A stretch of 63,238 bases of DNA, the filler included, from Collodictyon triciliatum (Eukaryota): the NCBI GenBank assembly GCA_043381765.1. It is 6 parts of 6 records of this genome, joined end to end, with 100 filler letters (N's around TTAATTAATTAA, not from the genome) between each part and the next. Parts side by side here need not be neighbours in the genome. Positions count along the whole stretch, not along the records: positions 1 to 22,436 come from JBHJMP010000250.1; 5 more parts are not named here. The stretch is one strand, 5' to 3'. This document shows, piece by piece, positions 1,368-63,174 of this stretch. A program made the position numbers and the translations under genes. Position 1 is the first letter of the stretch. Each line of letters opens with the position of its first letter. The notes under the pieces are model-generated. The model saw only the letters and a list, made by a program, of their open reading frames with translations. It was not told the origin of the DNA and made no database searches.

Positions 1368-2275
1368 AATGTTCATTTTGGATTTACTCAATCTCTCTTT
1401 ACTATCTGCCACCGATGTATTAATTGACGCTATAAACACGAGCAAAAAGCTAATCTTGGCGTTTGAGTCACATCCCAATTCCTTCTAATATCATTTAATC
1501 AATCCATCAATCCATCACTCTATCCTTGCAAGACTGATAACTTCCATTTTTGTACCTACTTTATCCACATATAGAATCATAGACAAAATAATGTCAATAT
1601 ATCCTAATATGGAATATTTATCACAATGTGGGTAATCCAGATATTTCAAAGAAATTCGATGCAAATGTATCGCCGTTGGATTCACTATTCAGCGATTACA
1701 ACCGTGTGGAATGGCAAATCCTGTCATTTTTCATGGAAAGATTTACTTACCCAGATGGGATTGAAAATAGAATGTTCCAATTTTCAAAACAAAATGCGTT
1801 CATCCTATCATTTGCAAGGAGATAAATAATGGGGAAAAAAACTGGCGTATATAAAACACAGAGAAAATCAAATGCTATGTTTATTGTGTGTTCTTATTGT
1901 AGGTCAAGGCAAATCAATAGAACATTCTGCGCCATCCGAAAGTCACAACGACAGGCGAACAAACCCTCACACGACCCAAAGGATGAGAGAACACCATCTA
2001 ACCGTAGAGAGAAGAACAATCAAAAAACAAAAAAAAAAAAACGAGCCATCTTCAGCAGCATCAATCACAATAATCGAATCATAAGCCTCACACAACCGGA
2101 TTCCAATGACTCACTTAGATGAAACGTGCTCGAAAGATATAACCGCCAATGTCGATGCCATGTCCGGGTTGAAATACACACCCTCTACCCGGCTATCAAA
2201 GAAAATCACTGAATCTCTCTTTTGCATTCTTCAGCACAGGAGGCAAAGTCCAACACCAAACTAGCGCGGCAACAA

Positions 2276-7439
<5,164 letters not shown>

Positions 7440-9016: not shown

Positions 9017-12000
9017 CCAACCTGTCACGGCTTTGATTGGTATTGCGGAACCCGAACAACCCAGTCTTTGCTCCATGCGACGTATTCGTGGTTTGTCGGG
9101 ACTCCTGTGTATTCGTGAAAATGCATAAGGCATATCCGTACCATTTTCATTGGCATCTATGTTGACATGGAACGAAAAAATATCTGAAAAATGCCCACAC
9201 ACCTGTGGAACCATGGTTGCGTTTTCAGGTGCTACATGCGCTGTGCTATTAATGATTTGAATTTTTGCGTCGTTGAGCTGTTTCATGATGTTTCCCTGTA
9301 TCCATACATATTAGTGAAATGAAAAGAAAAAAAAACTGGATGTAAAGCCCAATAACATCTTTTCAAAAAAAAAAAAAGGAGAGATTTCATCTTTTTAACA
9401 TTACTTTTTGTAAAATCAACAAGCTTGTGTGCACAAAAAGAAAAAACATAAACTATATAATGTTGTGCATACCTTTTCCAATAAGATGTTGTAAAGCACT
9501 ATGTTCTCTTCGCTGAGAGTGACAGAAGATTGGAAATTTTTTGCTTCTTCCAATACCTAAAGATTAGAGAGTGAATGCAGAGAAATTCACGATGTCATAG
9601 CCATGCATGAATCTGTCTGTGTTTCATTTCTTTTCGATTGCTTATTTCAAAGCTCGATTGTGATAGAAAGAACATCGATCCTTTGACGTTTTGAAAGGCT
9701 TACCGCGTCAATCTTTGAGTTTTGTTCTTCAATAAATTCATCCATTGTGGTAAAGGAGCTTTGCTTGCGCACCATCGTATCAATCATTTGTGTTCCGATT
9801 CGGTCGAATAGTTTCAGAATCTACCAAGATTATAAGTGACATCACATATAAGAACACATTTTTTAATAAACGAGCGGTGAAAATGGTTGCAGTGGTACTC
9901 TCATTTTACAGAGGATAGAGAGGGACAGAGTTGGAAAAATAAAATACATGTTCACGATGCTTTTCGCTTAGATAGGCATTAGGGTCAAGAGCCACTTGAG
10001 GAGCTTTCGATGCAGCTGGGCTTGTCCTCGAGGTTTTCTCGAGCTCATCAACCTTTTATTTTTTTAATTAATTGTTCACACATGATTCCAGCAGAACATT
10101 AGATATATTGGTATTGTTAACTTGAGTATGTGATATAATTAAATTTTCATGCACAATTAAAAGTTTTTTATTGTATACAAAATATATGTATAATAAAATG
10201 AAAGTTTGAAAGAGTTCACCTCTTGATAGTAGAACAAAAAGCAAATATTATAAAAGCTTTTATACAAATGAGTGAATGAATGGATCGTGTGTGTATCTCT
10301 TCAGTAAGATTCAATTACCTTTCTCTTTAGTCTCTCGACCTCTCTCTTTGAATCTGATAGGGTTTGGTCCAACTGCTCTAGTTCTCCTTTAAGCTGCAAT
10401 ATAAAATATCTATAGTTCAGAGTCTAATGACGGAAATAATCTCCGATAATGCCGATTTTATCGATTTTTTCATAATAAAAAAAATACCCTTCTCTCCTCG
10501 TCAGCCCAAGCTTTGCGCTTTTCTGAATGAGCAGCTTGCAAATCAGCAATCTACACATCAGCCATGATATATTCAGAAAATAAAATTGTTCGAAATACTT
10601 GACAAGTATGATGCAAATGATGGCAATTAAAAGGATATGATGAATAGTGCAAATATGCCGACAGTTCAGTCAACGTATACCATTGGTCCAGAAAATAAAT
10701 AAAAATTGTAACCTTTTTTTGGAACGGAGCAACTATGGACTCGCGGTCGATATCAGCAGACTGTTGTTTACGAAGTGTTTGCAAAGTGAGCAAGGGAAAG
10801 ACTGGTGATACTAATGCAGATGGAAACAAGCCTCTGTTGAATTGCCGAGCGAATCCGAGTGTCCGTCCGGGCGACTCTGCTGACCTCTCTTGAGGATTTC
10901 AGCCTCTTTTGCCAATGTGAGAACTTTTCTTTCGGATGTAGCTAGCTTTTCCTGTACCACTTGCAACGAACTTTCAGCCTTTTCAAGCTCCGATTGCAAG
11001 TGAGCTTTCTGAATGTATGGAGATTTGTTTATAAACGTGTGCTTAAAAAAAGTCTTGGAAATATGAATTTAAAACACGCACAAAGGAAAGGCTAAAAAAA
11101 AAAAAAGTAAAGTAAATAATTTATCACAATACATCATGTTCAGCTGAAGTAACGTGGCTTCGAAGCGCTTCGATATCTTCCTCCTTGGAAGCAATCTTAA
11201 AAAGAAAAAAAAGGAGAGAAATATTAAAGGGGTTTGGGAGAACCCCCCAAATAGAATATGCTTTTTTTTTTGTTGCTGTTTTAATCCAGGGTGATGTCAC
11301 GTACGTTTTGTTCCAGAGTTTTCTTTTCCTCTTCGACATCACTAAGTTGCTATAATTATTGTTTTTGTTTTTGTTTTTAAAAAAAATGGTTGGTGCAAAA
11401 TAGGTTATTCTCTGCATGCTCTGATAAGTGTTAAAAAAGAGTTATCTCTTACTAACGTTAAAAAAAAATAGAAAGATATTAAATAGCGCCAATCGAAGAA
11501 TTACCTTGCGGAGTCGCTTCTCTGTTTCTTCAAGACGAGCAGTCTTTTTCTTCAGAGATTCCTGTTATTGGGTATAATTAAGATGGGTAATTGAATTGAA
11601 CATAGATGAGAGAATATTGTTTTTTCATGATAGTAAATGATTCCTTTAATTAAATCATAATTACGTTTTCTTCTTTTTCTCTCTTTCTGGCCATTTCCTG
11701 GAATTCATCTTCAGGTGCCAGTCTAGAGACAGAGCGCGGCTAAATCCAACACATAAACAAAAAAAGAGAATGAATGCTTCTCCTCAGTTATATATTCAAT
11801 CTGGAAAGGAATAAATGCTGTTCAGGTGTAACATGACATGAGTCAAATTACCGTTAAAGTAGATGCAAGTGACAGTCTCTCAATCTCGCCTTCCAAATCA
11901 GAAATTTTTTCCTTTGTCTTGGTGTGAGCTCTTCGCTCTCTGTCTTTATCATCTGTGAGTTCCTCAACCTAAAGAAAAGTCATCAAGTTCAATTCAGCAT

Positions 12001-15000
12001 TCCCAGAAGTTTATTTTATCCGAACATCTGTTGATTTAAAAGCGCATTGTAAATTAATTTATAAATCGATTACACTGAATCCTACCTGTGATGTCAATTC
12101 CAGTACCTGATTTCTGAGCTCAGCAATCTTTTCTCTGTCTAGCTCACATTTGGATGAGAATCGATATTGTGTTTAACTTCCAAAAGCTTCAAAAAAAAAA
12201 GTATTATATGATAAAATAAATTATTTATCAAATATGAAAAGTACCTTTTCTGGCCTTTGATTCCATATCCCTTATCTTATCGGCGGTCTTTTCTTCCTCA
12301 TCCTCAATTGTTTTCTCTAGATCAGCCACCTTTTATTCATTTTTTTTTTTTGAGGAGAGTTCAGTATGAGGGGATTTGATAAATTACTTTTTCTTTTTCT
12401 TTTTTTTGGCATCGACAAACATAGTGAAATAGTACAATCATGTTATGGAGTGGATGTTCTTGAAATAATACTTGAAGGAAGGCTAACCTTTCGCCGGTTG
12501 TCTTCAGCGTCTCTTTTAGCTTGAGTATAATTTCTTTTTGCAGAAGCTAACTCACGCTCAAGTTCGGATATTCTCGTTTCAGCCTCATTTTCATCCATAT
12601 TTCCAGAGTCTTCGAGCTCTTCAATCTGATTTGTTAAATAAAAGCTTGATTGGGTCATAGATGGCAAAATCGTAAAAGGAAAAAAGAGAGAGAAATGAAA
12701 AAAAAATAGCAGTTAGATGGACAATTGCATACTTTTTTGTTCAATCTCTCCTTTTCTTGTTCCCAAGTTTCCTTGCTTAATTCAAAATCGTTCAAGGTAT
12801 CTTCATAATCCCGTTTGAACTTATTTCGTGAATCTGTCACCGTAGTCAGCTTCTTATTCAGAGAATCATTCTAAAAAAATGAATTTCCAGTAAGTTGTAT
12901 CCTAATTAAGAGATCGAAGACCAATTTGTTTGCGCATGGTGGTCAAGACAGCCTTATTGTTGTTTAAAATACATATAGACGAAGCATGATTTATAATTCT
13001 TATTTACTATAGGAGTTGACACAAACATCTATTTTCAGTCGAGATATAGCCATATTCAGATCACGAATTTCAGCATCCTTCTTGTTAAGCTTCTCTTCAA
13101 ACTCAGTGTCACTCGATTGCTTCTCATTTTTCATTCTTTGAAGCTTACGCTTTGACTCTTCAACCTGTTTTGAGTGGTAGTGATATTTATCCAGGGTGAA
13201 TAGCTTTCCATTCGGATCTGATTTCACATACCTTATTGGACTATTCACAGTATGTGTTAAAAAAAAACCTCTTCAGAAAGCTCTGCATTTTTAAGCTCCA
13301 AGTCTGCGACATCCTTTCCTAATTTTTCGTTGTTGAATTTCAGCTCCGATACCTTAATGTGTATGACGTGATATTTAGTCCAGATGTTTTGTTTGAGAGA
13401 TTAAAAAAAAAAATGCATATCGAATCCGAATATGGCATTCATTTTATGTCGTTACAAATATGTGAGGCATGAAAAAAAAATAATCATTTATTCGATTCAA
13501 TGCGCGAGGCATGAAAATTTCAAAGAATTGACAATATATATAAAAAAATACTTCATTGTCAGAGACGGCAGCTCTCTTTGACAATTCATCCTCAAGCTCT
13601 TTAATCTACGAGTAAGAATTGGATAATCAACAATTTTTCATTTTTATTTAATTTTAATTCATTTTTCTGTCACCTTCAGCTCAGTAAATTTCGAGCGACG
13701 GGCGGCTTCTTCTTGCTCCCTGATCTTTTCCTCTCTCAGGCGAGCCTCTTCTTCTGCTTTCAATCGAGCCAACTTGTTCGATTGATGGGAGAATATTAGG
13801 GTTATGAAGGAGTTGCATATCATTCTTTTATTAACACTAATCAATCAATATTTTATATTAAAATAAAAAAAACCAGGACAGCTAGATATAAATCACCTCC
13901 TCCGCTTTTCTCTTCTCTTCCTCCTCTTGCTCCCTCCTCTTTCGGTTGAGTAATGCGAGTTCTTCCTGAATTGTGATATTAGTTTTTAAAAATAGTATAT
14001 TTGCTTCATCCTTTTTTTTTTTCACTTTACCATGAAAACTAATGAATACACTATGCGAATTTCTCAGACAGTACCTGTTCTCTGAAACGCCGCTCCTCAT
14101 CTTCACGCTTTTATTAAATGGTTTTTTTTTCGAATTATTTATTGCTGTAAGGTCACTTTCACCATAGACGCACAAATAATAAAAGAAAGAATCAAACTAC
14201 ATAATCGATAGTATTTCTTTTCATTTACGCCAACCTCACGACGACGGGCTTCTTCCTTTTCTTTTTGTAGTGCAGCTCTACGGAGAGCTTCAGCTTGTTC
14301 CCTGGCCTAAAAAGTATGGAAATAAAATTAAATTAATCTAATTATCCCATCACGCATCATATTCAATTTATCCTATTTTAAAAATTAGGTATAGTATAAA
14401 TTATTCATACGATTCTCTCATGTTGCTCTTTTTCTTTCTGCTTGCGCTCTATAATGACCATTATTGAGTTTGATAGAATTTTTTTTATAAGGGATAAATA
14501 CTCCTCCAAACACTGTACCGTGGATTACCTCGCTCTTTTCTTAGATGAGACTCTCTGAATTCTTTGATTTTAGGGACATAAATCTAGTAAAAATAATAAT
14601 AATTGATATTGATATTGATATTGATATTGATATTGATATTGATATTGATATTGATATTGATATTGATATTGATATTGATATTGAATATATAAGGAGTCGT
14701 GCACTGCACATAAGTGTATATTTGCGATGAAAGAAAGGAAAATATAACAATCTAAACAAGTTTAGTGTTTTACAGATAAAAATGCAAATATGCAGTAAGA
14801 ATTATACAACATATACAAATGATGTCAGAACCTTGCGGGCTTGTCTGCCACGGAATAGCTTCTGAGCTATGACAGTTGATTCTCTCAAAGAGACAAACTC
14901 CTTTCTCTTAAAGTGCATGCGGATAACTTGGGTCATAAAGAAAATGAAGTTAAGATTTTCATAAGGACCACCCAACCCAACATGCATTTACGTTACCCGA

Positions 15001-16251
15001 CTGTGCTATAACAACCATTCGGGTGTACTTGATACGCCGGGACAAACGGATCCAACTTCGCGCGATGAAATACCCTCGAACAGCCGCGCGAATAAGCATG
15101 CGGAAAGCACGAATGGCTTTTAAGCGTCGGTTTACTAATAATAAAAATAAAAAAAGTGAAGAAATTTTGCTATTATCTGCGGATGTAACCAAGTAAACTT
15201 CGGAGAGAATATCTCGGTCATATGCGAAAAATGTAAAATGATAGGGGAAACCACTGCGAGAGAAAAAAATTGTGGTTTATTCTCAAGTAAGGTCAATATT
15301 ACAAATCCAGCAAATTACTTTTATAATACGCTAATGAAGTCCAAAATGCACGCTTTAATCTCTTTTTGCAAACCCATCGCCTAATTTTTATGATGACTGC
15401 AGGAGAGATTTCTTTGCCATCCCCGATTAATTCCTCAAGGAGTGCAAGCTAAGTATAAAGTAACCTTGTAAATCATATGGCGTACTTGTACGAGTGTCCT
15501 TCAACGTAAAAGGTTGATAATGTATGATCGATTGAAGTTAATATCAACATGAGTCTCTTTCATTCTACGGAATGCGTGAACTTACCTTTCCGGAGCGGAA
15601 GAAGAGTTTAGTCAAACCTAGTCCAAAGTCATCCTTATTGCAATCAAGTGCCATTAAAAGGGCCTCACAAAAGTATGGAGGGTCAAGATTCGCAATGGAA
15701 GCAGGAAGAACTGGCTTAAATCTGTAATTTGAGGAGTGATTGCATAATTTATCACATAGAATTTAAAATGTAATTAAATGAGTCAACCCTATATATCTCG
15801 GATAAAATGAATGTGTTCAGCTCATTAACCTCTGATACAAGTCATCGTATGGGCATCGCGTGGGATATCCAGCATGCATGAGCTTCAACACATCAATCAT
15901 TCCATTGCATCTGTATATATATATATATATATTGTTATATTCAAATCATATCTACTCCGTTGAGAGAAAAAAAATGCAATTTTTCGACTCTTTGAATGGC
16001 TTTTGCCAGTTCAAAAATTTTGACTTTGGAGTTTTTGGCTTAAATGGGAAGAATGAGGGATAAAAGTGACATAACAAAAAAAAAAAAAAAAAAAAAATTT
16101 TTATTACCAAAAACTTTGGGGGAAAAAAAGAAAGGAAACTTAATTTGTTTANNNNNNNNNNNNNNNNNNNNNNNNNNNNNNNNNNNNNNNNNNNNNNNNN
16201 NNNNNNNNNNNNNNNNNNNNNNNNNNNNNNNNNNNNNNNNNNNNNNNNNNN

Positions 16252-16323
<72 letters not shown>

Positions 16324-19300
16324 ATTTCATCTCCAGTAGCTTTGGGGGAAGAAAAGAAAGGAAACCTAAGCTGTGTAAGAATCATTCCACCCTCAAAGAT
16401 TTGTGGCTTTTGCTGTTCATTCGGTTTGATACATCGAATAAAATGGCATACTCCAGAGTTCAGTGTGTTCACCAACTCATTTAGTTGTTTCTAACAGTGT
16501 TTTTACCATAAGTATGCGACTTACATATCTAAACAGTATTTGTAAAAAGAAATATACTGAGGTAAAAAATTATAATAATAGAAAAAAGTAAAGCAATATT
16601 TCATACACATATTTACATATGACAGTTATACCGAAAAATAGCTTCCGACTGTTTTCACTGTGCTTTTTCTATCCCCTGGTTCACTCTATTAAATTTTAAT
16701 ATATGAGTTCGATTTATCAAATGTATCGTAATATATATATATATTCTTTCTTTGGTAGAGGTAATGAAGACGTAAGGAACAAAGCTGCAGCGAAAAGTCT
16801 CATAAAGCTGGTAAAGTGCTCACATACTTGCTCATCATACAGGGATTTTATCACTTCGTACGTGCTTGTCAGCATCAATAACATGATATCGGCTCGCAGG
16901 CTTTGATGTTCAGATGAAAATAAATACAAACATATGTACCGAGAAACTGCCATAGATATTAAAATAATTTGCGGGAAAGTGTCTCAATATTGTATGCCGT
17001 TCGTAAATTCTGTGAATCTTACTTGTCATTATTCTTATCCAGAAATCCAGCTGTCATGTAAGTAACCTATTTAGATGTATTATAGATAATAAAAAAAATT
17101 ATCGAAATTTTTAATGTATTAAATGTCTATAAGGACGCCCCATTGAACAGATAAAATACTAATTTGACTGATACAAAGATGTAAAGTGCTGGCATACATC
17201 ACCAGCATAGTGTTTCACAACAAATGCTTCATCTTTGGTGACTCTTGAGCCCGCCTATCATGTTTTATTAAATATTTTTTTTAAAAAAAAAAAAGCTCAA
17301 GAGTGTGACATACATCGATTAAAATGAGTAATTATGATATACATTGGACTGAGATATTGTTGGAGCACGGAAACGTGCATGACTGGCGTATTCTTTGTGG
17401 ATACGATTGGCGAATGTGCTTTTATGTAAAATAATAATCAGCTATTGGATACTTGATAAACTCTAGAGTTCAATCAGTACACTTAAATTGTAAAGTGGAC
17501 GAAAAGAACCAATATACATGTCTGTTGCCTTTGGAAGTCTACATTCTTCATCTAACATCGGGATGATTCCTTTTGGTTTCTGTTAAAAAAAATTATTAAA
17601 GAATTGAAGAAAAAAGACTTTGTCGGTATAAACAGTCAAACAAAGGCCAAACATCATTCAGGAAAGAAAAAAGTAGAAGAAAGATGAGGATTATACCTTC
17701 TCAATCATATCGATACAGTCTTGGTTGTCACTGTACTGAATGTCGGGCACACTAATACCTTCCAGGCGATAAATATCTTTTTCCTAGTGCAATTACGTGT
17801 TACGATGACTGCGCTCAAGTGAATATCGATTTCTGCGATTAAAAATTGTGTATTTGATTGATTTAAACTTGAATAAAGAGGTGTTCGTTGAAGTGCTGCT
17901 GCAGTTTTTCATTAGCAAAATTGATGCAAAACTGTATAAAATAGCGTGACGATTAGGATGTTTACAAAGCCATTGTATGTTCTCTATTTTAAATATGTAA
18001 AAAGGAATAGGTAAATAAGTAAATAAAAATAAGAAGTGAAATCGATTTTATTTCCAGAACGCCTACCTGCTCAAAGCTGTTGGTCTGTTGAGTGATAGAT
18101 TAAACAGTTTTTTAATATACATTCGTATATATGATGATTTTTCATTTTAAAAAAAAAAAGGAATCACGGGGCATCACTATGTTCGTACTCTAGTTTATAG
18201 TAATCCCTTATAATTTGAACAAATTTTGGTTTTACTTGGAAGTATTCAAAGCCGAAGATGTCCAAAATACCGATTGAATTTGATGACAGCTCAGAATCGA
18301 AGCTGAAACTGAAGTTAAAAATATTATTACAATATGAATTTGTGTAAACACCCATAAGACTTTGCGTGTAAAGACGAGCTATAGACAGAATTTTGTGGGC
18401 TCTACTTTCCAAAAATACTACTCGTTCATATTCAATTTCAATAAGTTGTGTTGCTTTTATTCTGGGATAAGAACAAACCTTTCGTTGATTTTCTTGACGA
18501 CATATAAAAATAATCTCTCATATGTTGCCTTTGCAAGAGCATCGCGGGTGTATATAGCCTTTCAAGTAACCGCTTTTGATTAGCAACAACCAATCTCCAT
18601 AAAAATGCTCAGTAGGGGAGGGAGAAAAAAATACATGAGAATTAGTTTCCTATTTCAAAGTCAAGCTGATCTGGTTGACAAAATTACCTCTTGAACTTTC
18701 AAAGGTACTTCATACGAAGAGCCTCTCTTGGTGCCAGAGGATACGATTCTGGATGTCAGCTTCTTCAAAAGAAAACCTTCGTCAAGTCCTAAACACTTGG
18801 CTGCCTTCTTGGCTGATTGCTGAGAAGCTGAAGATAAAGTAATTTGCCACTCAGTATGGCTTATGTATAAATACAAGGAGTTTTTTTTTCTTTTACTTTT
18901 GTATGTTCAAGTTACAAAGTACTGCTACCAATAAAAGTTGAAAATTGCTTGGTGTTCAAATAGTGTCTTGTAAATCATGTAGATTTTGATGTATGATGTG
19001 AGTTTATAAGGGAATTATTTAACGATATCACTGTACCGTCTCCGTCTAGTGTACAACCGTCTCCTGAGCCGACTCCTTTGAAGGATATGTTCCCCTTTAC
19101 GATAGCATTAAATATGTTCAATTAATTATCATAATAGGCCTTTACTTCATATTGGGAATGTGAAAAAATCTAAGCCATTCACATAAGTCACAAACCCAAA
19201 GACAGTATTCATGATTGCATCGGTAAAATAGATAATAATGATTCTACAAATACTAATACTAATTATTTTACCAAGTGCAGTAACCCAGCAACAACGCTAA

Positions 19301-20182
19301 AGACTTGCTTCATTTCAGACGCAGTAAATCCAATCGCGGTCATAGCATTCTACAGGAAAGAGATGTATCTCATTTGCTTTTAAAAAAAAGAAGAAGAAAA
19401 TAGGGGGAGAGGGGCAGGGTATTTGTATGTTCGTGTTCCTTGTTTCTTTATGAATTTTGTTCAACATTGATCAAAAAGCAGTAGAGAGTGGGTTTGTTGG
19501 ATGTGATGCAAAGAGCTTTAGAAACCTGGACAATCTGAAACTCTGCAGAATCCTTAACCCCGGCGATTTCGATGCATCCGCTTTGAGACAAATAATAGTA
19601 TTTGTCTGGAGATTCAAGCGACAACTCAGCTAGGAGTTATGGAGACTCATTATGAGGTAGTAAATTCATTTAATCGTGGTCATTTTCACGTATGTATTGA
19701 CAGAGATATTACAAAAACATTACAGAGTAGATGAATCTTCATAATTTTAAAAGCATTAACTTAAGGTGCATTTAGACATATGAGATGGTGCTGGATGTAT
19801 ATGTTACCTTTCAATTCCTTCGACGCACCCGTTGTGAGTTGGTAAAAGATATGATAGTTTCTTTCCCCTTTGTTTTGGTAGACCAGTCGAGACTATTGAA
19901 TGCGTTAATGATACAATTATGACGAATGAAAAAATATATGGAATCAGAGAAGAGGGAGAGAGAGAGAAAAGTGTAAATCGATCGCAATGGTACAAAAAAA
20001 AAAAAAAAAAAAAAAAAAAAGGAAGAGAATATTTAAAAAAANNNNNNNNNNNNNNNNNNNNNNNNNNNNNNNNNNNNNNNNNNNNNNNNNNNNNNNNNNN
20101 NNNNNNNNNNNNNNNNNNNNNNNNNNNNNNNNNNNNNNNNNAAAAAAGAAAATAAAAAAAAAAATGCAATATAAAATCAATG

Positions 20183-20219
<37 letters not shown>

Positions 20220-20516
20220 TAGAGTACCTTTTCTAACAAGTCTGAAAGTTGATGAACCGATGGAGATGGTTTGTTAAGGAGGAAGGAAAAGGCGCATTAA
20301 TATATGAGAAGTGGACATGATGGATAGGCTTAAATTTGTCATTATCATTTCGGAAAATTATTGCAGATATCATATCTCCTTGGAATCTTACATGTAACGA
20401 TGCAGGCACCCACCACGTTATTGTCTGAGTCAAAGTGAATCTCCAAGAACTTACCCTAAAATTATGGGATGCAGCTCTGGTGAGTGATGAACGAAAGGGG
20501 TAATAGCTTCACTTGA

Positions 20517-20612
<96 letters not shown>

Positions 20613-22218
20613 AGACCCTGCACATTTGCAGAATATTTTTAAGCTTTCATTATTTGAAAGAAGACAATGTGATTAAAAGGTACGAAACGTGACGAATTAT
20701 TATTCCTTAAGGTCTTTGCATTTCCAAATGCTTCTAAAATAGGATTGCTTTCGATGATTCTTCTTTCATTCAGTGCAACCTATACGCAGGGGTAAGAATA
20801 GAGTATATAAGTTATCATGATAAAATATGGAGAATTCGTCCACAAGAATCAATCATCACTGCATAGGAATATTTAGAGGTCTTCGAACTCACTTGGTTAG
20901 CACGTCCTCCAATCTTGACGAGGTATTGCATCACAAATTTGCTAGTTTCAGTCTTCCCAGCACCACTTTCCCCACTAATCAAGATCGACTGATTCTTTTT
21001 CTCTATACATAGGAAAGATAGGTAAAGAAAGTATGAACGAGAAAATTAAAATCATGATTGGGTTACAAATATAGTTTTCTGTAACGAAAAGAATCTGGTA
21101 AATACAGTCTGATGTATAAAAAAAAAAAAAAGTATATCAATGATTGGAGTTTGCGTATGCATTATAATTGTATTATTGTTTGTTGGGTGGACGTTGATAG
21201 GATTAATCAGACCAGCTTTCATGGAGCGGTAAGCACGGTCAGCGATAGCAAAGACATGAGGGGGCATTCGGCCAATGGCTTTCCCGCGATAGTCTTCAAA
21301 GTGTTTCTCCGTGTATAGTGGCAAAGTTTTGTATGGATTTACGGCAATCAAGATGTACCCTACCAGAGTCTGTGTTTTGTTTTAGTATTATACAGGACAG
21401 TGCCAATAGTTGGTTTTTTTCCCTTTGTTCGATTCAAAGAGTGCCAATAGATGGTTATTCTGTATATATTTGAGTTTTCAAACTTACATAAATATCATTC
21501 CGCTTGTATCGCACGGAGAGATTGTGCAGGACAGCAGCTTCATTCAAGTAGGTCAGTTGTGTGTTATCTGGGACGCCGTCTAGCTCAGGATTATTTGCCT
21601 GGAGGGCTTGTTCCTTGGCATAGGTCAAAACCTGAACAAAAGTGGTATAAAATATATTTATAGGCAAGGTAAATTGGAATGATTCACATTATGTACCTCA
21701 TACGATTAACAAATGTAGTTTTTATATTGGTTAATTCATTCAAAAATATGATGAAATGTCGAAAATATGCGCATGTATAGATGATTTTAGTTTAACTGTT
21801 TCATTATTATTTCTATCTTTTAATAACTGTTAGTATAGTGCTTTCATATATTTACCGATGATTAGAATAGAATAGAATAAAATAAAAAGGCACCTTCCCA
21901 GATTTTTCCTTGTATATGTACTGGGATTGATCCGGGGACGCCTCTGCAAGAACATAGCCGAGTGTTGCGTGCGGAACCCAGCCAAGGATCTTTTCTGGAG
22001 CCTGAGTTTCCCAGTATTATCAGCCACATTGTGGAATAAGGATGATAGCAGACACAAATGAAATGCCGAAGTATGTTTGCAGACAGCGAAAAACGCTTCG
22101 AGGAAACATGGCTTCGATCATAACTTGATCGTGAGACAGAAGTGCGGTCGACTCGGCAAGATATGAAGAAAACAAGAAGGGAAGCTACCTTAGGTCGCCC
22201 GCCTGGATTGCTTAACAT
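8818..22218 (-). CDS. Myosin heavy chain, class VI-like motor with IQ neck, SAH region and long coiled-coil tail; about 57 exons
   Basis: Spliced translation gives [20 protein letters not shown]-loop [11 protein letters not shown], switch [44 protein letters not shown], switch [38 protein letters not shown] and converter [11 protein letters not shown]. These are followed by IQ-like [12 protein letters not shown] and [12 protein letters not shown], an E/R/K-rich helix and heptad repeats. The 3'-most exons (stop at 8818) are the best of several possible models. Confidence 0.95.
8946..9015. repeat. (AAT)n microsatellite in a terminal myosin intron
   Basis: Directly visible. Confidence 0.95.
14602..14684. 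repeat. (ATTGAT)n hexamer microsatellite in a myosin intron
   Basis: Directly visible. Confidence 0.95.
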
Positions 22219-22713: not shown

Positions 22714-25585
22714 ATGTTGATGGAAGAGCCTCTGCCGCTGGTTACCCTCAATGAAGAGACAGGCGAGTTTCAGATCGTCAGAGAAGCCTTTGAAATGCTT
22801 CAAGCCATCGATGACCCGGTTTATGTATGGTTTCACGTTTCCTTTTTTTTTTAAAAAGAAAAAAAGCTAGCCTTTTATCCTACGAATATTGCACTATAGC
22901 ATACTTTTACTTCCTTTTTTTTCTCCTTATCTAATAGTCTTTATCTTTGTCTTCGTCTATCTCTTTGTCATTACAGGTTGTCGCGATCGCAGGTATTTAC
23001 CGCACTGGGAAAAGCTTCGTGTTGAATCAACTTGTCGGAAAGACAGACGGATTCGACATCGGCTCTACTATTGAGCCATGCACTCAAGTATTTTTTTCAT
23101 TCATTCTCTTCAACATAGTATTTTGATATTTGCATGTTTTAGAGTCATCTATCTCTATAAATATCTTTTAGATTCATTAATTAAATCATAATGATAATAG
23201 GGCATATGGCTTTGGTTGGCTGATGAAACGAATGTCGATGTTGCGGAATTTGGCTTGCCACCCAAGTTTAAACTTGTTATGTTGGATACTGAGGTCTTTA
23301 AGCTATTTCTACTTTGCTTTTTATTTCAACTAGCAAATAATTCATCTATTCTCACAATTTTCTGTTCTTTTCTTAAAAAAAATAAATAAATAAATGACAG
23401 GGCCTGGGTTCGTTTTCCAAGTCGGAAACTTACGATATCCAGATCTTCTCTCTCTCCCTGCTGCTCAGTTCTTACTTCATCTACAACAGTCTTGGAAGCA
23501 TCGACGAGACTGCCATCGATCGCCTTTCGTTTGTCTTCATGAAACCTGCTTTCGTGATAACTGATGTGACAGTGTTATAACTTTTGTTTATATAATACCT
23601 AGATTGGTCCTTGAACTTTCCAAGCACATTCAGGCACAAACAGACTCTGTCAGCGATCCCTATCAGTTGAAGCTTTTCTTCCCTTCCTTCTTGTGGTTAG
23701 TCCGTGACTTCAGCTTAGAACTTAGCGCTGGAGGTAGGCAAATATCGTCACGGGAGTATTTGGAGAATGCCTTATTGCCATCTAAGGTACATGTTTTCTA
23801 AAATAATCAACCATAGCTATGTTTTATGACTCATAGTGTTTTCACTCTCAGATACCCTATGCCCAAATATTATCATCCCATAATAATTTGGTTTCTAGAT
23901 TTTGCCTCATGTATTTATCCTTCCATTTACGAAAAACTTATTCTAGGGAGACCCCAGTCGTGTTGGTGGAAAAAACGCCATTCGGAATGCCATCACCCAA
24001 TTTTTCGGAGACCGTGATTGTTATACCATGAAGCGCCCAGTTGGAGATGAGGAGAAACTCCAAAATCTTCGCTCTCTTCCACTCGATCAGTTCCGCCCCG
24101 AATATTTGGAGCAGATGAAAGAGTTGAAGAAGAAAATATTAACAAGCCTAAAGCCAAAGACTATGTTTGGAAGCCCTCTGAACGGAACAAGTAGGGAACT
24201 TTAAGCGAATGAAAGAAAATATCTATTTCATTTAGATCATACCACGAAGTGTTTGTTATATCGTACGTGTGTTAACAAAAGCCCTCCTTTAGTGTTGGCT
24301 GAACTCATGGAGAACTACGTGAAGGCAATAAACGAAGGAGGGGTTCCTGTTATTAAAACTGCGTGGGAAAACGTGTCATTGATGCAGTGCCAGAAAGCTT
24401 TGGATGATAGCAAGGCTTTTTATACAAAGACGTAACTATGCTCTTTATAATTTTCAAGATAAATACGACACCAAGATCTGATGAAGCATAATTTTTGTGC
24501 CTGACTTTCGTATTATCAATGACATTAAGCATTACGACTTCGTTGGAGGCTTCACAAGCTCTTGATTTGGGTAACTTTATCCGACTACATCGAGATACTT
24601 ATTGGCAAGCATTCACAGTATTTCGTAGAATCGCAGTGGGTGAGGAGATTCCCAAGTACGAGAGAGATTTCAAGGTTTGCGATTCAGTTATTCTTCAGGG
24701 TGCTATCATAACCATTTCTCTCCCGTTCAGATGACTGATGACAGTATATTAGGAATATGTTGATGAGCAATTTGCTATCCTATTCCTTCAAAATGCCACA
24801 AAATCTCAATCAGAGTGCGAGAGCTTAATTACTGGTATTTAATTTATTCCATCTTTATCGCTCTGTATTTTTAATATCGTTATTGTTCAAAGAATATTAG
24901 CGTGTTCATAGTTAACGAAATGTTAACCCTGTAAAAAAAAAAAAAAAGGTCTGTCCAAACACACAAACGAATTTATCAACTCTTCGGAACTTAGTACCAT
25001 TTTGCAGCTGAAAAAAACATGGGAGGTAAACCTGGTCCATCCTACGAGATGACCAATAAACTATTCTCAAATGTTGAAATGGAACTAATACGACATTTAT
25101 CGCTACATAACCGATTGCCAGGAAACCCTCGAAAAATACTTGTCTGCTGGTAGTGGCCCAAAAAAATCTCAAGTGATATCTAACCATGTTCGCAATCGAC
25201 TATTAGATCAAGCAAGACGAGTACGCTTCTAATATATTATACATACCTACGTTTTAATTCATCATGAAACCCATATTTCGCTTCATTCAAGCTTACCCAA
25301 GAGCATATTGTAAAGGTATGCTTTCTCTCCTTTTTCGTACTCCTTGTCCTCAGGTTTCCAGGATTATGGTTACCAACACTGCGAAAGAAGGTGAAGAAGC
25401 CATTAGGAAGGTGGAGGCTGCAGCACAGGAAAAATATTCAAAACTTGAGGGAGAATATATGAACATAAATGCACAAAGAAGAGATCTGGAGGTTAGTATT
25501 GATTAATTTTTCCTTTTTTTTCTCTCTCTCCTTTTTTTTCTCTCTCTCCTTTTTTTTCTCTCTCTCCTTTTTTTTCTCTCTTCTT

Positions 25586-29256: not shown

Positions 29257-35400
<6,144 letters not shown>

Positions 35401-61221: not shown

Positions 61222-61635
61222 ACATTAGTCCATATTCCAAATAGAAAAAAAAAATAAGATGAAAAGAAAGAGAAAAAAAACCCGAGGCAAAAAAAAAAAA
61301 TTTCAATCAGGAGGGATGATGGGGTAAAGATGGAAATGCGAACTTTATCATATTTATTTTTTACACAAGGTTTATTTGATGATTGAAACGAATCTCGATC
61401 GAATTCTTTTTCTTTTCTTTATCTCAGCATTACCTAGACACTAGGTGCTGCCTTTACTTGCATATGATTTCCTCTTCTTTCATGGGAGAGAAACCCAGCT
61501 AGTATCTAGTGAGATTGGAATCTGAATTTATTATTTTTTTTTTGTCTTTATGTGCGTGTGTATGTGTGTGGTTTAGTTGGTTTTGTTTTGTTTTGTTATT
61601 GCTTCGTTTGTTGGGGGTTTGCAAAGACGGGCCAT

Positions 61636-63174
61636 CTACGCCAGCTTCTCCCTCTTGCGCAGAGACATGAGGGTGCGGAGGGCATCGAGGGAGTGGGGCT
61701 GGAGGACTGCAACGGCGACGAGGGCGAGGAGGGCGGCGAGGAGACACGCGGCGAAGTGGCACAGATAGTGGATGTCGGAGGGGTTGGGGGCGGCAAGGAA
61801 GAAGGCGAGGGAGAGGCGCAGGGCGAGGTGGAGGGCGGCGGCAGAGAGGAGGAGGGCGGGGCGGGGGAGCCAGTCGGACCAGGCGGGGAGGAGCTGGGCG
61901 GAGGTGTGGTCGTGGGTGGCGAGATGGCGGAGGAAGCGGGCGTAGGTGCGGACGTGGTGGGCGGCGCGGAGGGCGAGGGTGAGGGCGTTTGCAAGGGCGA
62001 GGGCGTGGAGGCCGGGCCAGGGCTGCGGGAGGGCGAGGGCGGCGAGGGCGAGGGCGATGTGGAGGGCGGCTGCGCGGCGGAGGAGGGAGTTGAGGGCGGG
62101 GACGGAGGCGACGGGATACGCGGCGGACGCGGCGAGGGCGCGCACAAGGGCCTCTGCGCACCCGTTGACGGCCATGCAGGCGACAGGGATGCAGTAGAGC
62201 TGCAGCAGGCCGACGGCGGGGCCGGCCGCAGGGCCGAAGAGCACGCGCCAGGCCAGCGGGGCGGCGGCAGGGCCGAGGGCGGCGACGGCAAGGGCAAGCA
62301 GGCCCACAAGATGCAGGGCCGTGTGCGCCAGGCGGGCGAGGGCGACGCCGCTGCGGCTGCAGGCCAGGTGCGCCAGGACGGGGTCGAGCGCCTCCTCCAG
62401 CGGCTGCAGCACCAGGCGCACGCCCAGCGACGCGGCGGCCTGGACGGCGCCGTATGTGGCGAGCGACGCGGCGGGGGCGCCCCAGGCGAGGGCGGCGCGC
62501 TCGGCCTCGGCCAGCAGCAGCTTCTGCAGCGAGTGGACGCACGGGGGCAGCAGCGCGTGCAGCGTGTGGCGCGACACGGGCGGCAGGGACAGCGGCCGTG
62601 GGGCGTGCGCCGTGAAGCCCAGCCGCGTCGCCGCGTGGACCAGCGGGCCGGCCGCCACCAGCGCGGGCCACAGCGGCTGCGGCGCAAGCACCAGCGCCAG
62701 GCACAGCAGCCACGCGCGCACCGTCGCCGCCACCGCCTCCGCCCGGGCCGTGCGCGCAGCCACCGCAGGCAGGTGCTCCGCCGCAGTGTGCAGCCGCTCG
62801 TGCAGCGCACACGCCTCCGCCACCCCCCGCAGCCCCAGCCCCAGCGCCGCAAGACCCGCCACGGGCGCAGCCCCCGACGCCGCAGCCCCCGCCCCCGCCG
62901 CACACACCAGCGCCGCAGCCGCCCCAAAGACCGCCGTCGCCCCCGGCACCCCCGCCCCCAGCCGCAGCGGCTCCCGCAGCGCGTGCAGCGCCACAGCCTC
63001 CCACAGCGGCAGCGTCACCGTGTGCAGCGCCCCCGCGCTTGTGGTCGCTGTCCCGGTCACTCGCACCACGTGCCAGTTGGCCCAGAACGTCGCCCCGCGC
63101 TGCGCAAGCGCCCACAGCAGCCCCGTCCCCACCGCCCCGACCGCCTGCGCGCCGTTGTCTCCCCGCTCGCTCAT
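61636..63174 (-). CDS. RFT1: Divergent RFT1 (Man5GlcNAc2-PP-dolichol translocation protein), intronless, 512 aa
   Basis: Multi-TM protein. ALAQRGATFWANWHVVR (compare QxxxRxxTFxxNxxxxR), LREPLRL (SREAxRxA), HSLQKLLLAEAER (QSxxKxLLTEGxK), SLGVRLVLQPLEE (SLxARLLFQPIEE), LLQLYCIPVACMAVNGCAEALV (LxxYCxYxxxLAxNGITEAF), ANALTLALRA. Confidence 0.85.
   Translation of the reverse strand: MSERGDNGAQAVGAVGTGLLWALAQRGATFWANWHVVRVTGTATTSAGALHTVTLPLWEAVALHALREPLRLGAGVPGATAVFGAAAALVCAAGAGAAASGAAPVAGLAALGLGLRGVAEACALHERLHTAAEHLPAVAARTARAEAVAATVRAWLLCLALVLAPQPLWPALVAAGPLVHAATRLGFTAHAPRPLSLPPVSRHTLHALLPPCVHSLQKLLLAEAERAALAWGAPAASLATYGAVQAAASLGVRLVLQPLEEALDPVLAHLACSRSGVALARLAHTALHLVGLLALAVAALGPAAAPLAWRVLFGPAAGPAVGLLQLYCIPVACMAVNGCAEALVRALAASAAYPVASVPALNSLLRRAAALHIALALAALALPQPWPGLHALALANALTLALRAAHHVRTYARFLRHLATHDHTSAQLLPAWSDWLPRPALLLSAAALHLALRLSLAFFLAAPNPSDIHYLCHFAACLLAALLALVAVAVLQPHSLDALRTLMSLRKREKLA

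Follow-up and report, generated by a model that had tools for sequence, protein, structure and literature searches.

A stretch of 63,238 nucleotides from Collodictyon triciliatum (assembly GCA_043381765.1), made of six joined parts and referred to here as the window, contains on its minus strand an intron-rich gene for an unconventional myosin. The gene lies within the part that derives from record JBHJMP010000250.1, in DNA of eukaryotic character with about 35% G+C and many runs of N. An earlier note on this DNA had assigned positions 14832..22218 to a myosin-VI-like motor provided with a counterpart of insert 2, the reverse-gear segment of myosin VI, and devoid of insert 1, and had proposed a candidate reverse-direction myosin outside animals. 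The reading reached here, to which a probability of about 0.7 can be given, is that an intact and transcribed gene of a non-animal eukaryote occupies the interval with its motor and neck, coding for an unconventional myosin of the myosin-VI-like kind with a predicted reverse-gear mechanism.

The gene model comprises 30 coding exons that run from 22109 down to 14832, each with AG/GT flanks, separated by canonical GT-AG introns of 70-455 bases; its spliced motor and neck product is a stop-free protein of 855 residues. Compared with P0001, a 1294-residue protein from a protist transcriptome whose open reading frame (ORF) is marked complete, this product shows no internal gaps and is identical at 653 of 785 positions. 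All the peptides quoted in the earlier note are found on the minus strand, and the one interrupted by an intron, which begins at the end of the insert-2 exon and finishes in the following one, is recovered exactly in the spliced model.

The first exon (22095..22109, with its ATG at 22109, an alternative in-frame ATG at 22121 and a donor GT) contributes five codons and is the least certain of all, having been picked by frame and by likeness to the N-terminus of P0001. Exon 2 (21894..22001) covers the N-terminal SH3-like region and contains the tetrapeptide listed in the earlier note, followed by exons 3 (21488..21631) and 4 (21213..21369), by the P-loop in exon 5 (20893..21002) and by the switch I region in exon 6 (20684..20779). 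After exon 7 (20392..20455) comes a microexon of 14 bases, exon 8 (20228..20241), required for the frame and for an invariant pentapeptide; a second microexon, of 18 bases, is exon 16 (18067..18084). Both belong to the motor domain, have canonical AG/GT flanks and encode one invariant myosin-head pentapeptide each. Between them are placed exon 9 (19808..19892), exon 10 (19526..19629), which in the model and the alignments holds the site of insert 1 of animal myosin VI and has no insert here, exons 11 (19272..19349), 12 (19037..19094), 13 (18688..18827) and 14 (18479..18558), and exon 15 (18236..18308) with switch II. Alignment to myosin VI chains puts a Ser of exon 13 in the TEDS-site column, the position to which the TEDS rule refers, which is occupied by Thr in myosin VI. 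The motor domain continues through exons 17 (17869..17931), 18 (17697..17783), 19 (17518..17579), 20 (17343..17418), 21 (17198..17254), 22 (17023..17066), 23 (16828..16900) and 24 (16632..16685) to exon 25 (16366..16490), which covers the SH1-helix region. The converter is divided between exon 26 (15830..15910, with an RNA contig over 15830-15901) and exon 27 (15586..15721), the latter ending at residue 734 and having both flanking junctions in RNA contigs. Exon 28 (15319..15448) encodes residues 735-778 of the insert-2 homologue, namely a short helix, a break and a basic amphipathic helix with a conserved Trp, as read from alignments, a sequence profile, the structure model of a relative and RNA junctions. 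The end of insert 2, a basic and hydrophobic helix and the start of a first IQ-like motif are found in exon 29 (14997..15134), which is placed by alignment and RNA junctions, and the IQ-like motifs proper in exon 30 (14832..14926).

The expression of the gene was followed by mapping RNA contigs over 14800-16040 and by a word search over 16400-19800. In the run designated X1, a single contig of 3158 bases joins 14832-14926, 14997-15134, 15319-15448, 15586-15721 and 15830-15901 with no other letters, so that all four predicted junctions of the mapped region are present and the converter, insert-2 and neck exons are joined as modelled. The parts skipped by this contig end in CT..AC, that is, in GT..AG on the minus strand. 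Run X2 contains two of the junctions, including 14926/14997, which is common to both runs, plus pieces running into introns. Three public runs contain 7-16% of the sampled words of 16400-19800; because about one third of that region is exonic in the model, such shares are at the level expected of spliced RNA. The third run, X3, is a freshwater metatranscriptome, with a word share of 0.07. The label 'RNA?' of these runs is a guess only, but the presence of the spliced form demonstrates processed transcripts. As a separate observation, the X2 contigs extend into the introns that flank the insert-2 exon (14997-15194 and 15226-15418), while X1 has the spliced form only; the intron-containing contigs could be unspliced precursor or DNA carry-over.

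A pseudogene or an artefact of assembly would find some encouragement in the two runs of N inside the locus and in an assembly rich in homopolymer and microsatellite tracts. However, both runs of N (16152-16251, in the intron that follows exon 25, and 20042-20141) are intronic, the frame is open over 855 residues in 30 canonical exons, and spliced contigs with zero mismatches occur in two runs; this explanation is already contradicted and its probability is negligible.

With regard to the kind of motor, a search of solved structures with P0001 returned myosin VI for all the 19 best distinct chains, at 742-620 bits, followed by an entry named 'motor domain of myosin' at 612 bits, which carries the title myosin-XI in the fold search, and by Dictyostelium myosin II at 600. 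The only Pfam family in P0001, as in P0002, is the myosin head. Among the 120 relatives listed, the closest are proteins from protist transcriptomes, with 68-50% identity, after which come Capsaspora MYO6, a Thecamonas protein and the Rmarinus, COSAG02 and Stygamoeba proteins; animal myosin VI stands at 44-46%. The N-terminal region of P0001 aligns with myosin VI as well, and the model of a relative has four short strands before the head; Pfam Myosin_N is not reported for P0001.

The placement of the head was derived from 150 representatives found with another relative, P0003, across a protein library. Clades were named by the Pfam tail domains of 36 of them, the labels being DIL, Myosin_tail_1, TH1+SH3, WW+MyTH4, MyTH4-RA-FERM, class-VIII-type SH3 and PX/PH/BTB/CH, and row P0144 was left out for incomplete motor coverage. 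A FastTree overview of 167 rows was followed by an IQ-TREE analysis under LG+G4 of 74 rows chosen to cover all clades, over 725 columns, cut off where the converter exon ends. In other words, insert 2 is unable to drive the result of the latter, because the post-converter columns were left out. The window gene joins P0001 with support 100/100, then P0003 (100/100) and P0004 (100/99), within a window clade of ten rows (98/95) that is in turn united with a four-row clade containing both 'Rmarinus' proteins (97/95). A group of 49 rows (94/92) then brings together the window clade, the RUN-tailed rows and an animal-type clade of 20 rows (100/99), composed of animal myosin VI, Thecamonas, Capsaspora and Stygamoeba, outside which the window gene falls. 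Addition of the PX/BTB-tailed rows (96/89) and of the PH/CH-tailed rows (100/100) completes a clade of 60 rows, with all the rows having DIL, myosin II, TH1, MyTH4, WW or class-VIII-type tails placed outside it.

As regards the class-VI-like head claimed in the earlier note, the motor does not group with another class and falls in the 94/92 group together with animal myosin VI, Capsaspora MYO6 and the Thecamonas protein. On the tree, then, the head is VI-like and belongs to class VI in the broad sense of PMC3942036, outside the subclade of myosin VI with proven direction. A narrow, animal or holozoan class VI does not accommodate it, the motor being outside the 20-row clade in the 74-row IQ-TREE analysis, and neither do the 'VI-like' classes XXX and XXIII of stramenopiles, alveolates and Rhizaria (SAR), as it does not group with the PX/PH/BTB/CH rows, whose class names are deduced from tail domains and from what PMC3942036 states of these classes.

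A different class would be conceivable, that is, SAR 'VI-like' XXIII or XXX, or an orphan lineage, in which case convergence or an artefact of alignment would explain why its post-converter segment resembles insert 2. A restrictive classification points in this direction: in the account given in PMC5583752, class 6 is Holozoa-only and haptophyte sequences were rejected for want of its loops and tail domains, and the window gene too is without insert 1 and cargo-binding domain. Moreover, the 94/92 node is not starred, and the tree contains no curated references of class XXIII or XXX. On the other hand, the PX/PH/BTB/CH rows, XXX-like on tail domains alone, form two separate clades (100/100 each) outside the 49-row group; the 60-row clade uniting them with the window clade and animal myosin VI is itself supported at 100/100; and matches to insert 2 in the proper register, described below, occur in 49 of 77 rows of that clade vs 1 of 86 elsewhere. 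Membership in a different class is very unlikely.

The segment that follows the converter was compared in an alignment of 48 rows, A1, of which 23 have the myosin VI cargo-binding domain and 25 do not. The 53 residues after the converter are gap-free in all 48 rows, and within insert 2 a Val and, three residues later, a Trp are each conserved in at least 90% of rows. Similarly, the alignment of P0001 to myosin VI structures continues through insert 2. A profile of insert 2 was then built from 22 animal sequences only and scored, with filters off, against 168 proteins, counting matches of at least 5 bits in register with the converter end and leaving the four training sequences present in the scored set out of the counts. 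In-register matches came from 45 of the 59 VI-like rows, from 4 of the 16 rows in the PX/PH/BTB/CH sister clade, from neither of two intermediate rows and, among the 86 other myosins, from a single one. In the window protein the match covers residues 752-782, at 10.6 bits. The insert-2-like segment proposed in the earlier note is confirmed in this respect, being in register and above background, though weak by identity. At the level of sequence, these comparisons demonstrate homology between the 53-residue post-converter segment and insert 2 of myosin VI, the two being gap-free and in register.

The absence of insert 1, also claimed in the earlier note, holds as well, since about 22-26 residues are missing at its site in the window protein. 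Specifically, the alignment of full-length myosin VI to P0001 is split in two at the insert-1 site, where about 22 residues of the chain have no partner, and only delta-insert-1 constructs of myosin VI align in one stretch. In A1, 21 of the 23 rows with a cargo-binding domain have the whole insert-1 block (about 26 residues), which is shortened in one pig isoform and missing in P0052; it is missing in 25 of the 25 rows without that domain. Its absence is therefore the rule outside animals and no peculiarity of the window gene. Taken together, the alignments and the tree add to the earlier picture that a homologue of insert 2 occurs throughout the 60-row clade, while only animal-type rows have insert 1 and the cargo-binding domain. 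The position of the gene outside animals is itself deduced from the tree, from the missing insert 1 and from the missing cargo-binding domain. A side observation concerns P0052, of environmental source, which has the cargo-binding domain without insert 1 and is the basal branch among the animal-type rows, a hint that of the two the cargo-binding domain is the older.

The geometry of the lever can be approached through the AlphaFold model of P0003 (1042 residues, 69% identical to the window head), computed with A1 as alignment and no light chain. The model has a mean predicted local distance difference test score (pLDDT) of 80.3 and a predicted template modelling score of 0.69, with motor blocks mostly at pLDDT 85-97. 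Past the last converter strand, a helix at residues 737-745 is followed by a non-helical break at 746-752 (block pLDDT 67) and by a long helix from 753 onwards; the first 40 residues of the lever helix (751-790) have block pLDDT 87-93. In a Foldseek search with this model the 26 best matches are all myosin VI. The path of the lever was judged from aligned ranges, not from a lever angle. In the VIA-align comparison, five chains of myosin VI motor, insert 2 and calmodulin match the model over residues 8-789/790 and the chain over 4-814/815, with 729 of the 732 chain residues aligned in the case of 2vas at a root-mean-square deviation (rmsd) of 5.8 Å. The best-fitting state, 5o2l (rmsd 3.9 Å), is aligned to model residue 767 and chain residue 789. 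Among the 50 rows compared, the alignment of every non-VI chain breaks off at model residue 744-752, or before it in the case of shorter constructs; these chains include some with lever helices, that is, myosin V with light chain, scallop S1, myosin X with 2 IQ motifs and myosin 5a with its full lever, and myosin I was compared too. A straight lever had been named in the earlier note as evidence to the contrary; the lever helix of the relative breaks and then overlays myosin VI through chain residue 815. In the predicted model, the helix after the break follows the path of myosin VI and not a straight one.

On these grounds, the following mechanism can be proposed. The first part of insert 2 would break the lever helix at the exit of the converter, as in myosin VI, and the second part, a basic amphipathic helix whose Trp is almost invariant, would bind a calmodulin-like light chain. 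Turned back across the converter, the lever would lead the motor to move towards the pointed (minus) end of actin. Minus-end-directed movement is judged fairly probable from sequence and structure model, and the proposal of a candidate reverse-direction myosin outside animals is supported.

Several observations weigh against this reading, some on the side of the segment itself, others on that of the model or the tree. The insert 2 of the window protein has 7 identical (13%) and 24 similar residues over 53 ungapped positions when compared with coelacanth myosin VI; the E-value of its profile match is modest, 3.8e-3 among 168 sequences, and 14 of the 59 VI-like rows score below 5 bits, including 3 of the 11 rows of the window's own FastTree clade. 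No Pfam IQ motif (PF00612) is found above threshold in the window neck. The structure model is that of the relative P0003, without calmodulin, and its rmsd to the insert-bearing myosin VI chains is 5.8-6.2 Å; furthermore, it does not amount to independent evidence, because its alignment contains animal myosin VI rows and the method was trained on myosin VI structures. As for the tree, all the myosins VI whose direction is known fall in the 100/99 subclade, to which the window gene does not belong; the sub-lineages under the 94/92 node are in no resolved order, and the statements made rest on LG+G4 and the FastTree overview.

Some of these points would be accounted for by a protein that is VI-like by descent yet plus-end-directed, whose post-converter segment would be an extra light-chain site or a part of a long lever, the reversal having come later, on the animal branch. 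The 7/53 identity and the position of the window clade outside the subclade of all known minus-end myosins agree with it, as do a neck longer and differently built from the animal one and the lack of insert 1, which is described as class VI-defining (PMC11040104). Nevertheless, the segment is equally long and gap-free in every one of the 48 rows of A1, with helix break and Trp conserved throughout; the model of the relative lies on the myosin VI path, unlike any non-VI chain of the 50 rows; and redirection of the lever is the established role of insert 2 (Menetrey 2005, as reported in PMC13448217). Plus-end movement is for these reasons considered unlikely, and minus-end movement driven by insert 2 is the preferred reading.

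Beyond insert 2 the neck departs from that of animals. A conserved basic and hydrophobic helix, without a Pfam match, comes first, and its residue pattern would possibly correspond to an IQ-like motif with the Gln replaced. Two IQ-like motifs were placed after it in the earlier note: the last one corresponds to a Pfam IQ match of 18.9 bits, under the cut-off of 20.3, and the other is without a match. In the relative P0003 a precomputed PF00612 match is present. Residues 861-980 of P0001 are then 55-65% Glu, Lys or Arg, a composition like that of the single-alpha-helix regions described for classes 6 and 10 in the pertinent part of PMC5378345.

The interval of the earlier note covers motor and neck correctly and falls short as regards the end of the gene, since tail exons reach to at least 11873. 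The loose end of the X1 and X2 contigs at 14832 continues into a tail exon at 14583. Specifically, tblastn with P0001 and a junction search by coordinates outlined tail exons on the minus strand over 11873..14583, Glu/Lys/Arg-rich at first and coiled-coil-like afterwards. Their approximate limits are 14583-14529, 14448-14411, 14306-~14230, ~13965-13897, 13772-13674, 13605-13552 and 13352-13269 in the upper part, and 13164-13027, 12870-~12740, ~12640-12488, 12329-~12246, ~12154-12086 and 11968-11873 or lower in the lower part; two junctions were without solution, one was ambiguous and the 3' end is undefined. The Myosin-VI cargo-binding domain (PF16521) was found neither in P0001 nor in the window, where 14 tail ORFs were searched and the C-terminus of the gene is undefined. 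The same 14 ORFs contain no Pfam family above threshold, with weak coiled-coil-type matches only, and in tblastn searches with the tails of eight relatives the window exons were matched by P0001 only. A complex prediction for two copies of P0001 residues 985-1294 gave a score of 0.20 and a mark of 0.32, which is evidence neither way. Downstream of the last exon matched by P0001, coiled-coil-like ORF pieces without a Pfam domain were observed on the minus strand at about 9650-11564; these pieces may lengthen the myosin tail past the end of the orthologue P0001, or else be part of a different gene.

The lever would consequently be longer than the animal one, being formed by the insert, one degenerate and two IQ-like motifs and a Glu/Lys/Arg stretch of about 120 residues that is perhaps a single alpha-helix. 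Such a long neck with a charged helix would give a large step, and the long heptad-like tail would produce a coiled-coil dimer rather than cargo-induced dimerisation, as might suit a two-headed transporter or anchor.

Of the systems already known, the one that matches best in both sequence and fold is animal myosin VI (MYO6, Drosophila Jaguar/95F, C. elegans SPE-15 and HUM-8), with 43-45% identity to the window head. Likeness extends to the insert-2 homologue, at the same place and of the same length, to Ser or Thr in the TEDS-site column and to a Glu/Lys/Arg-rich stretch after the neck. By contrast, the window gene is without insert 1 and without the Myosin-VI cargo-binding domain, lies outside the 100/99 subclade and, where animal myosin VI has a single IQ, presents an extra helix, two IQ-like motifs and a long coiled-coil-like tail. 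Capsaspora MYO6, the Thecamonas 'spe-15'-like protein, Stygamoeba and the RUN/PH/PX-tailed protist proteins, of the same 49-row group, have 46-48% identity to the window head and share the presence of insert 2 and the absence of insert 1 (25 of 25 rows aligned). Their tails bear RUN, PH or PX domains, whereas the ten rows of the window clade have coiled-coil-like tails without a Pfam domain and a 98/95 clade of their own. A further parallel, by description and not by sequence, is offered by the apicomplexan class XXIII myosins PfMyoJ and PfMyoK, which according to the portion of PMC13448217 devoted to them have an insert-2-like insertion at the converter end, with 28% and 12% identity to insert 2 vs 13% for the window protein, and for which the minus-end direction is likewise only predicted, from AlphaFold-3 lever geometry.

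The distribution of class VI is a matter of disagreement between two large surveys. The relevant section of Sebe-Pedros et al. 2014 (PMC3942036) reports class VI in metazoans, choanoflagellates, filastereans, Corallochytrium, apusozoans and one haptophyte; in that of Kollmar and Muhlhausen (PMC5583752), class 6 is kept in Holozoa and the haptophyte sequences are without class-6 loops and tail domains, so that the two differ on the age of the class. In the part of PMC11040104 that treats these elements, insert 1 and insert 2 are together the class VI-defining elements, and a cell assay of direction is described. Direction has been demonstrated for animal proteins only, and a literature search of a limited library found no paper testing the direction of a non-animal VI-like myosin.

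If the motors of the window clade are minus-end-directed, the reverse gear would be older than the divergence of the main groups of eukaryotes and would be an ancestral eukaryotic, rather than an animal or holozoan, invention, with insert 1 and the cargo-binding domain as late animal additions. The locus, an intact and expressed motor and neck with insert 2 and without insert 1, would make a clean construct for asking when the reverse gear arose and if it can work in the absence of the parts specific to animals. Published work has already described class VI or VI-like myosins outside animals, as the corresponding passages of PMC3942036 and PMC13448217 make clear, and the gene is one of many candidates in public data (59 rows in the VI-like clade); it is a worked example rather than a discovery. 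At slightly under even odds, the ten tree rows of the window clade, sister to the 'Rmarinus' proteins, may also represent a distinct, unnamed reverse-gear subfamily outside the animal-fungal-amoebozoan branch, with insert 2 conserved and a lever and tail of a plan unlike the animal one. In its putative architecture insert 2 would be followed by three IQ-type sites, by a stretch resembling a single helix and by a long coiled coil.

The remainder of the window contains a few other features. Just below the myosin locus, a 208-residue ORF on the minus strand at 7691-8314 matches zf-RVT, the zinc-binding region of reverse transcriptases (35.6 bits, E 1.5e-8), and looks like the remnant of a retroelement. 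At about 22938-24200, on the plus strand, exon-like ORFs start with a P-loop-type motif and resemble, by eye, a large GTPase of the guanylate-binding-protein or atlastin kind; this putative gene would be the head-to-head neighbour of the myosin gene. An open frame of 297 residues on the plus strand at 2213-3106, where the local G+C is 0.46 vs about 0.35, is perhaps a single long exon from the gene of an unrelated enzyme. At the end of the window, a minus-strand frame of 472 residues (61596-63014), rich in Pro, Ser, Arg and Cys and with a G+C of 0.43, may be a compositional artefact or a low-complexity protein. Finally, a plus-strand ORF at 32646-33155 contains a Walker-A-type motif and resembles, again by eye, the nucleotide-binding domain of an ABC transporter.

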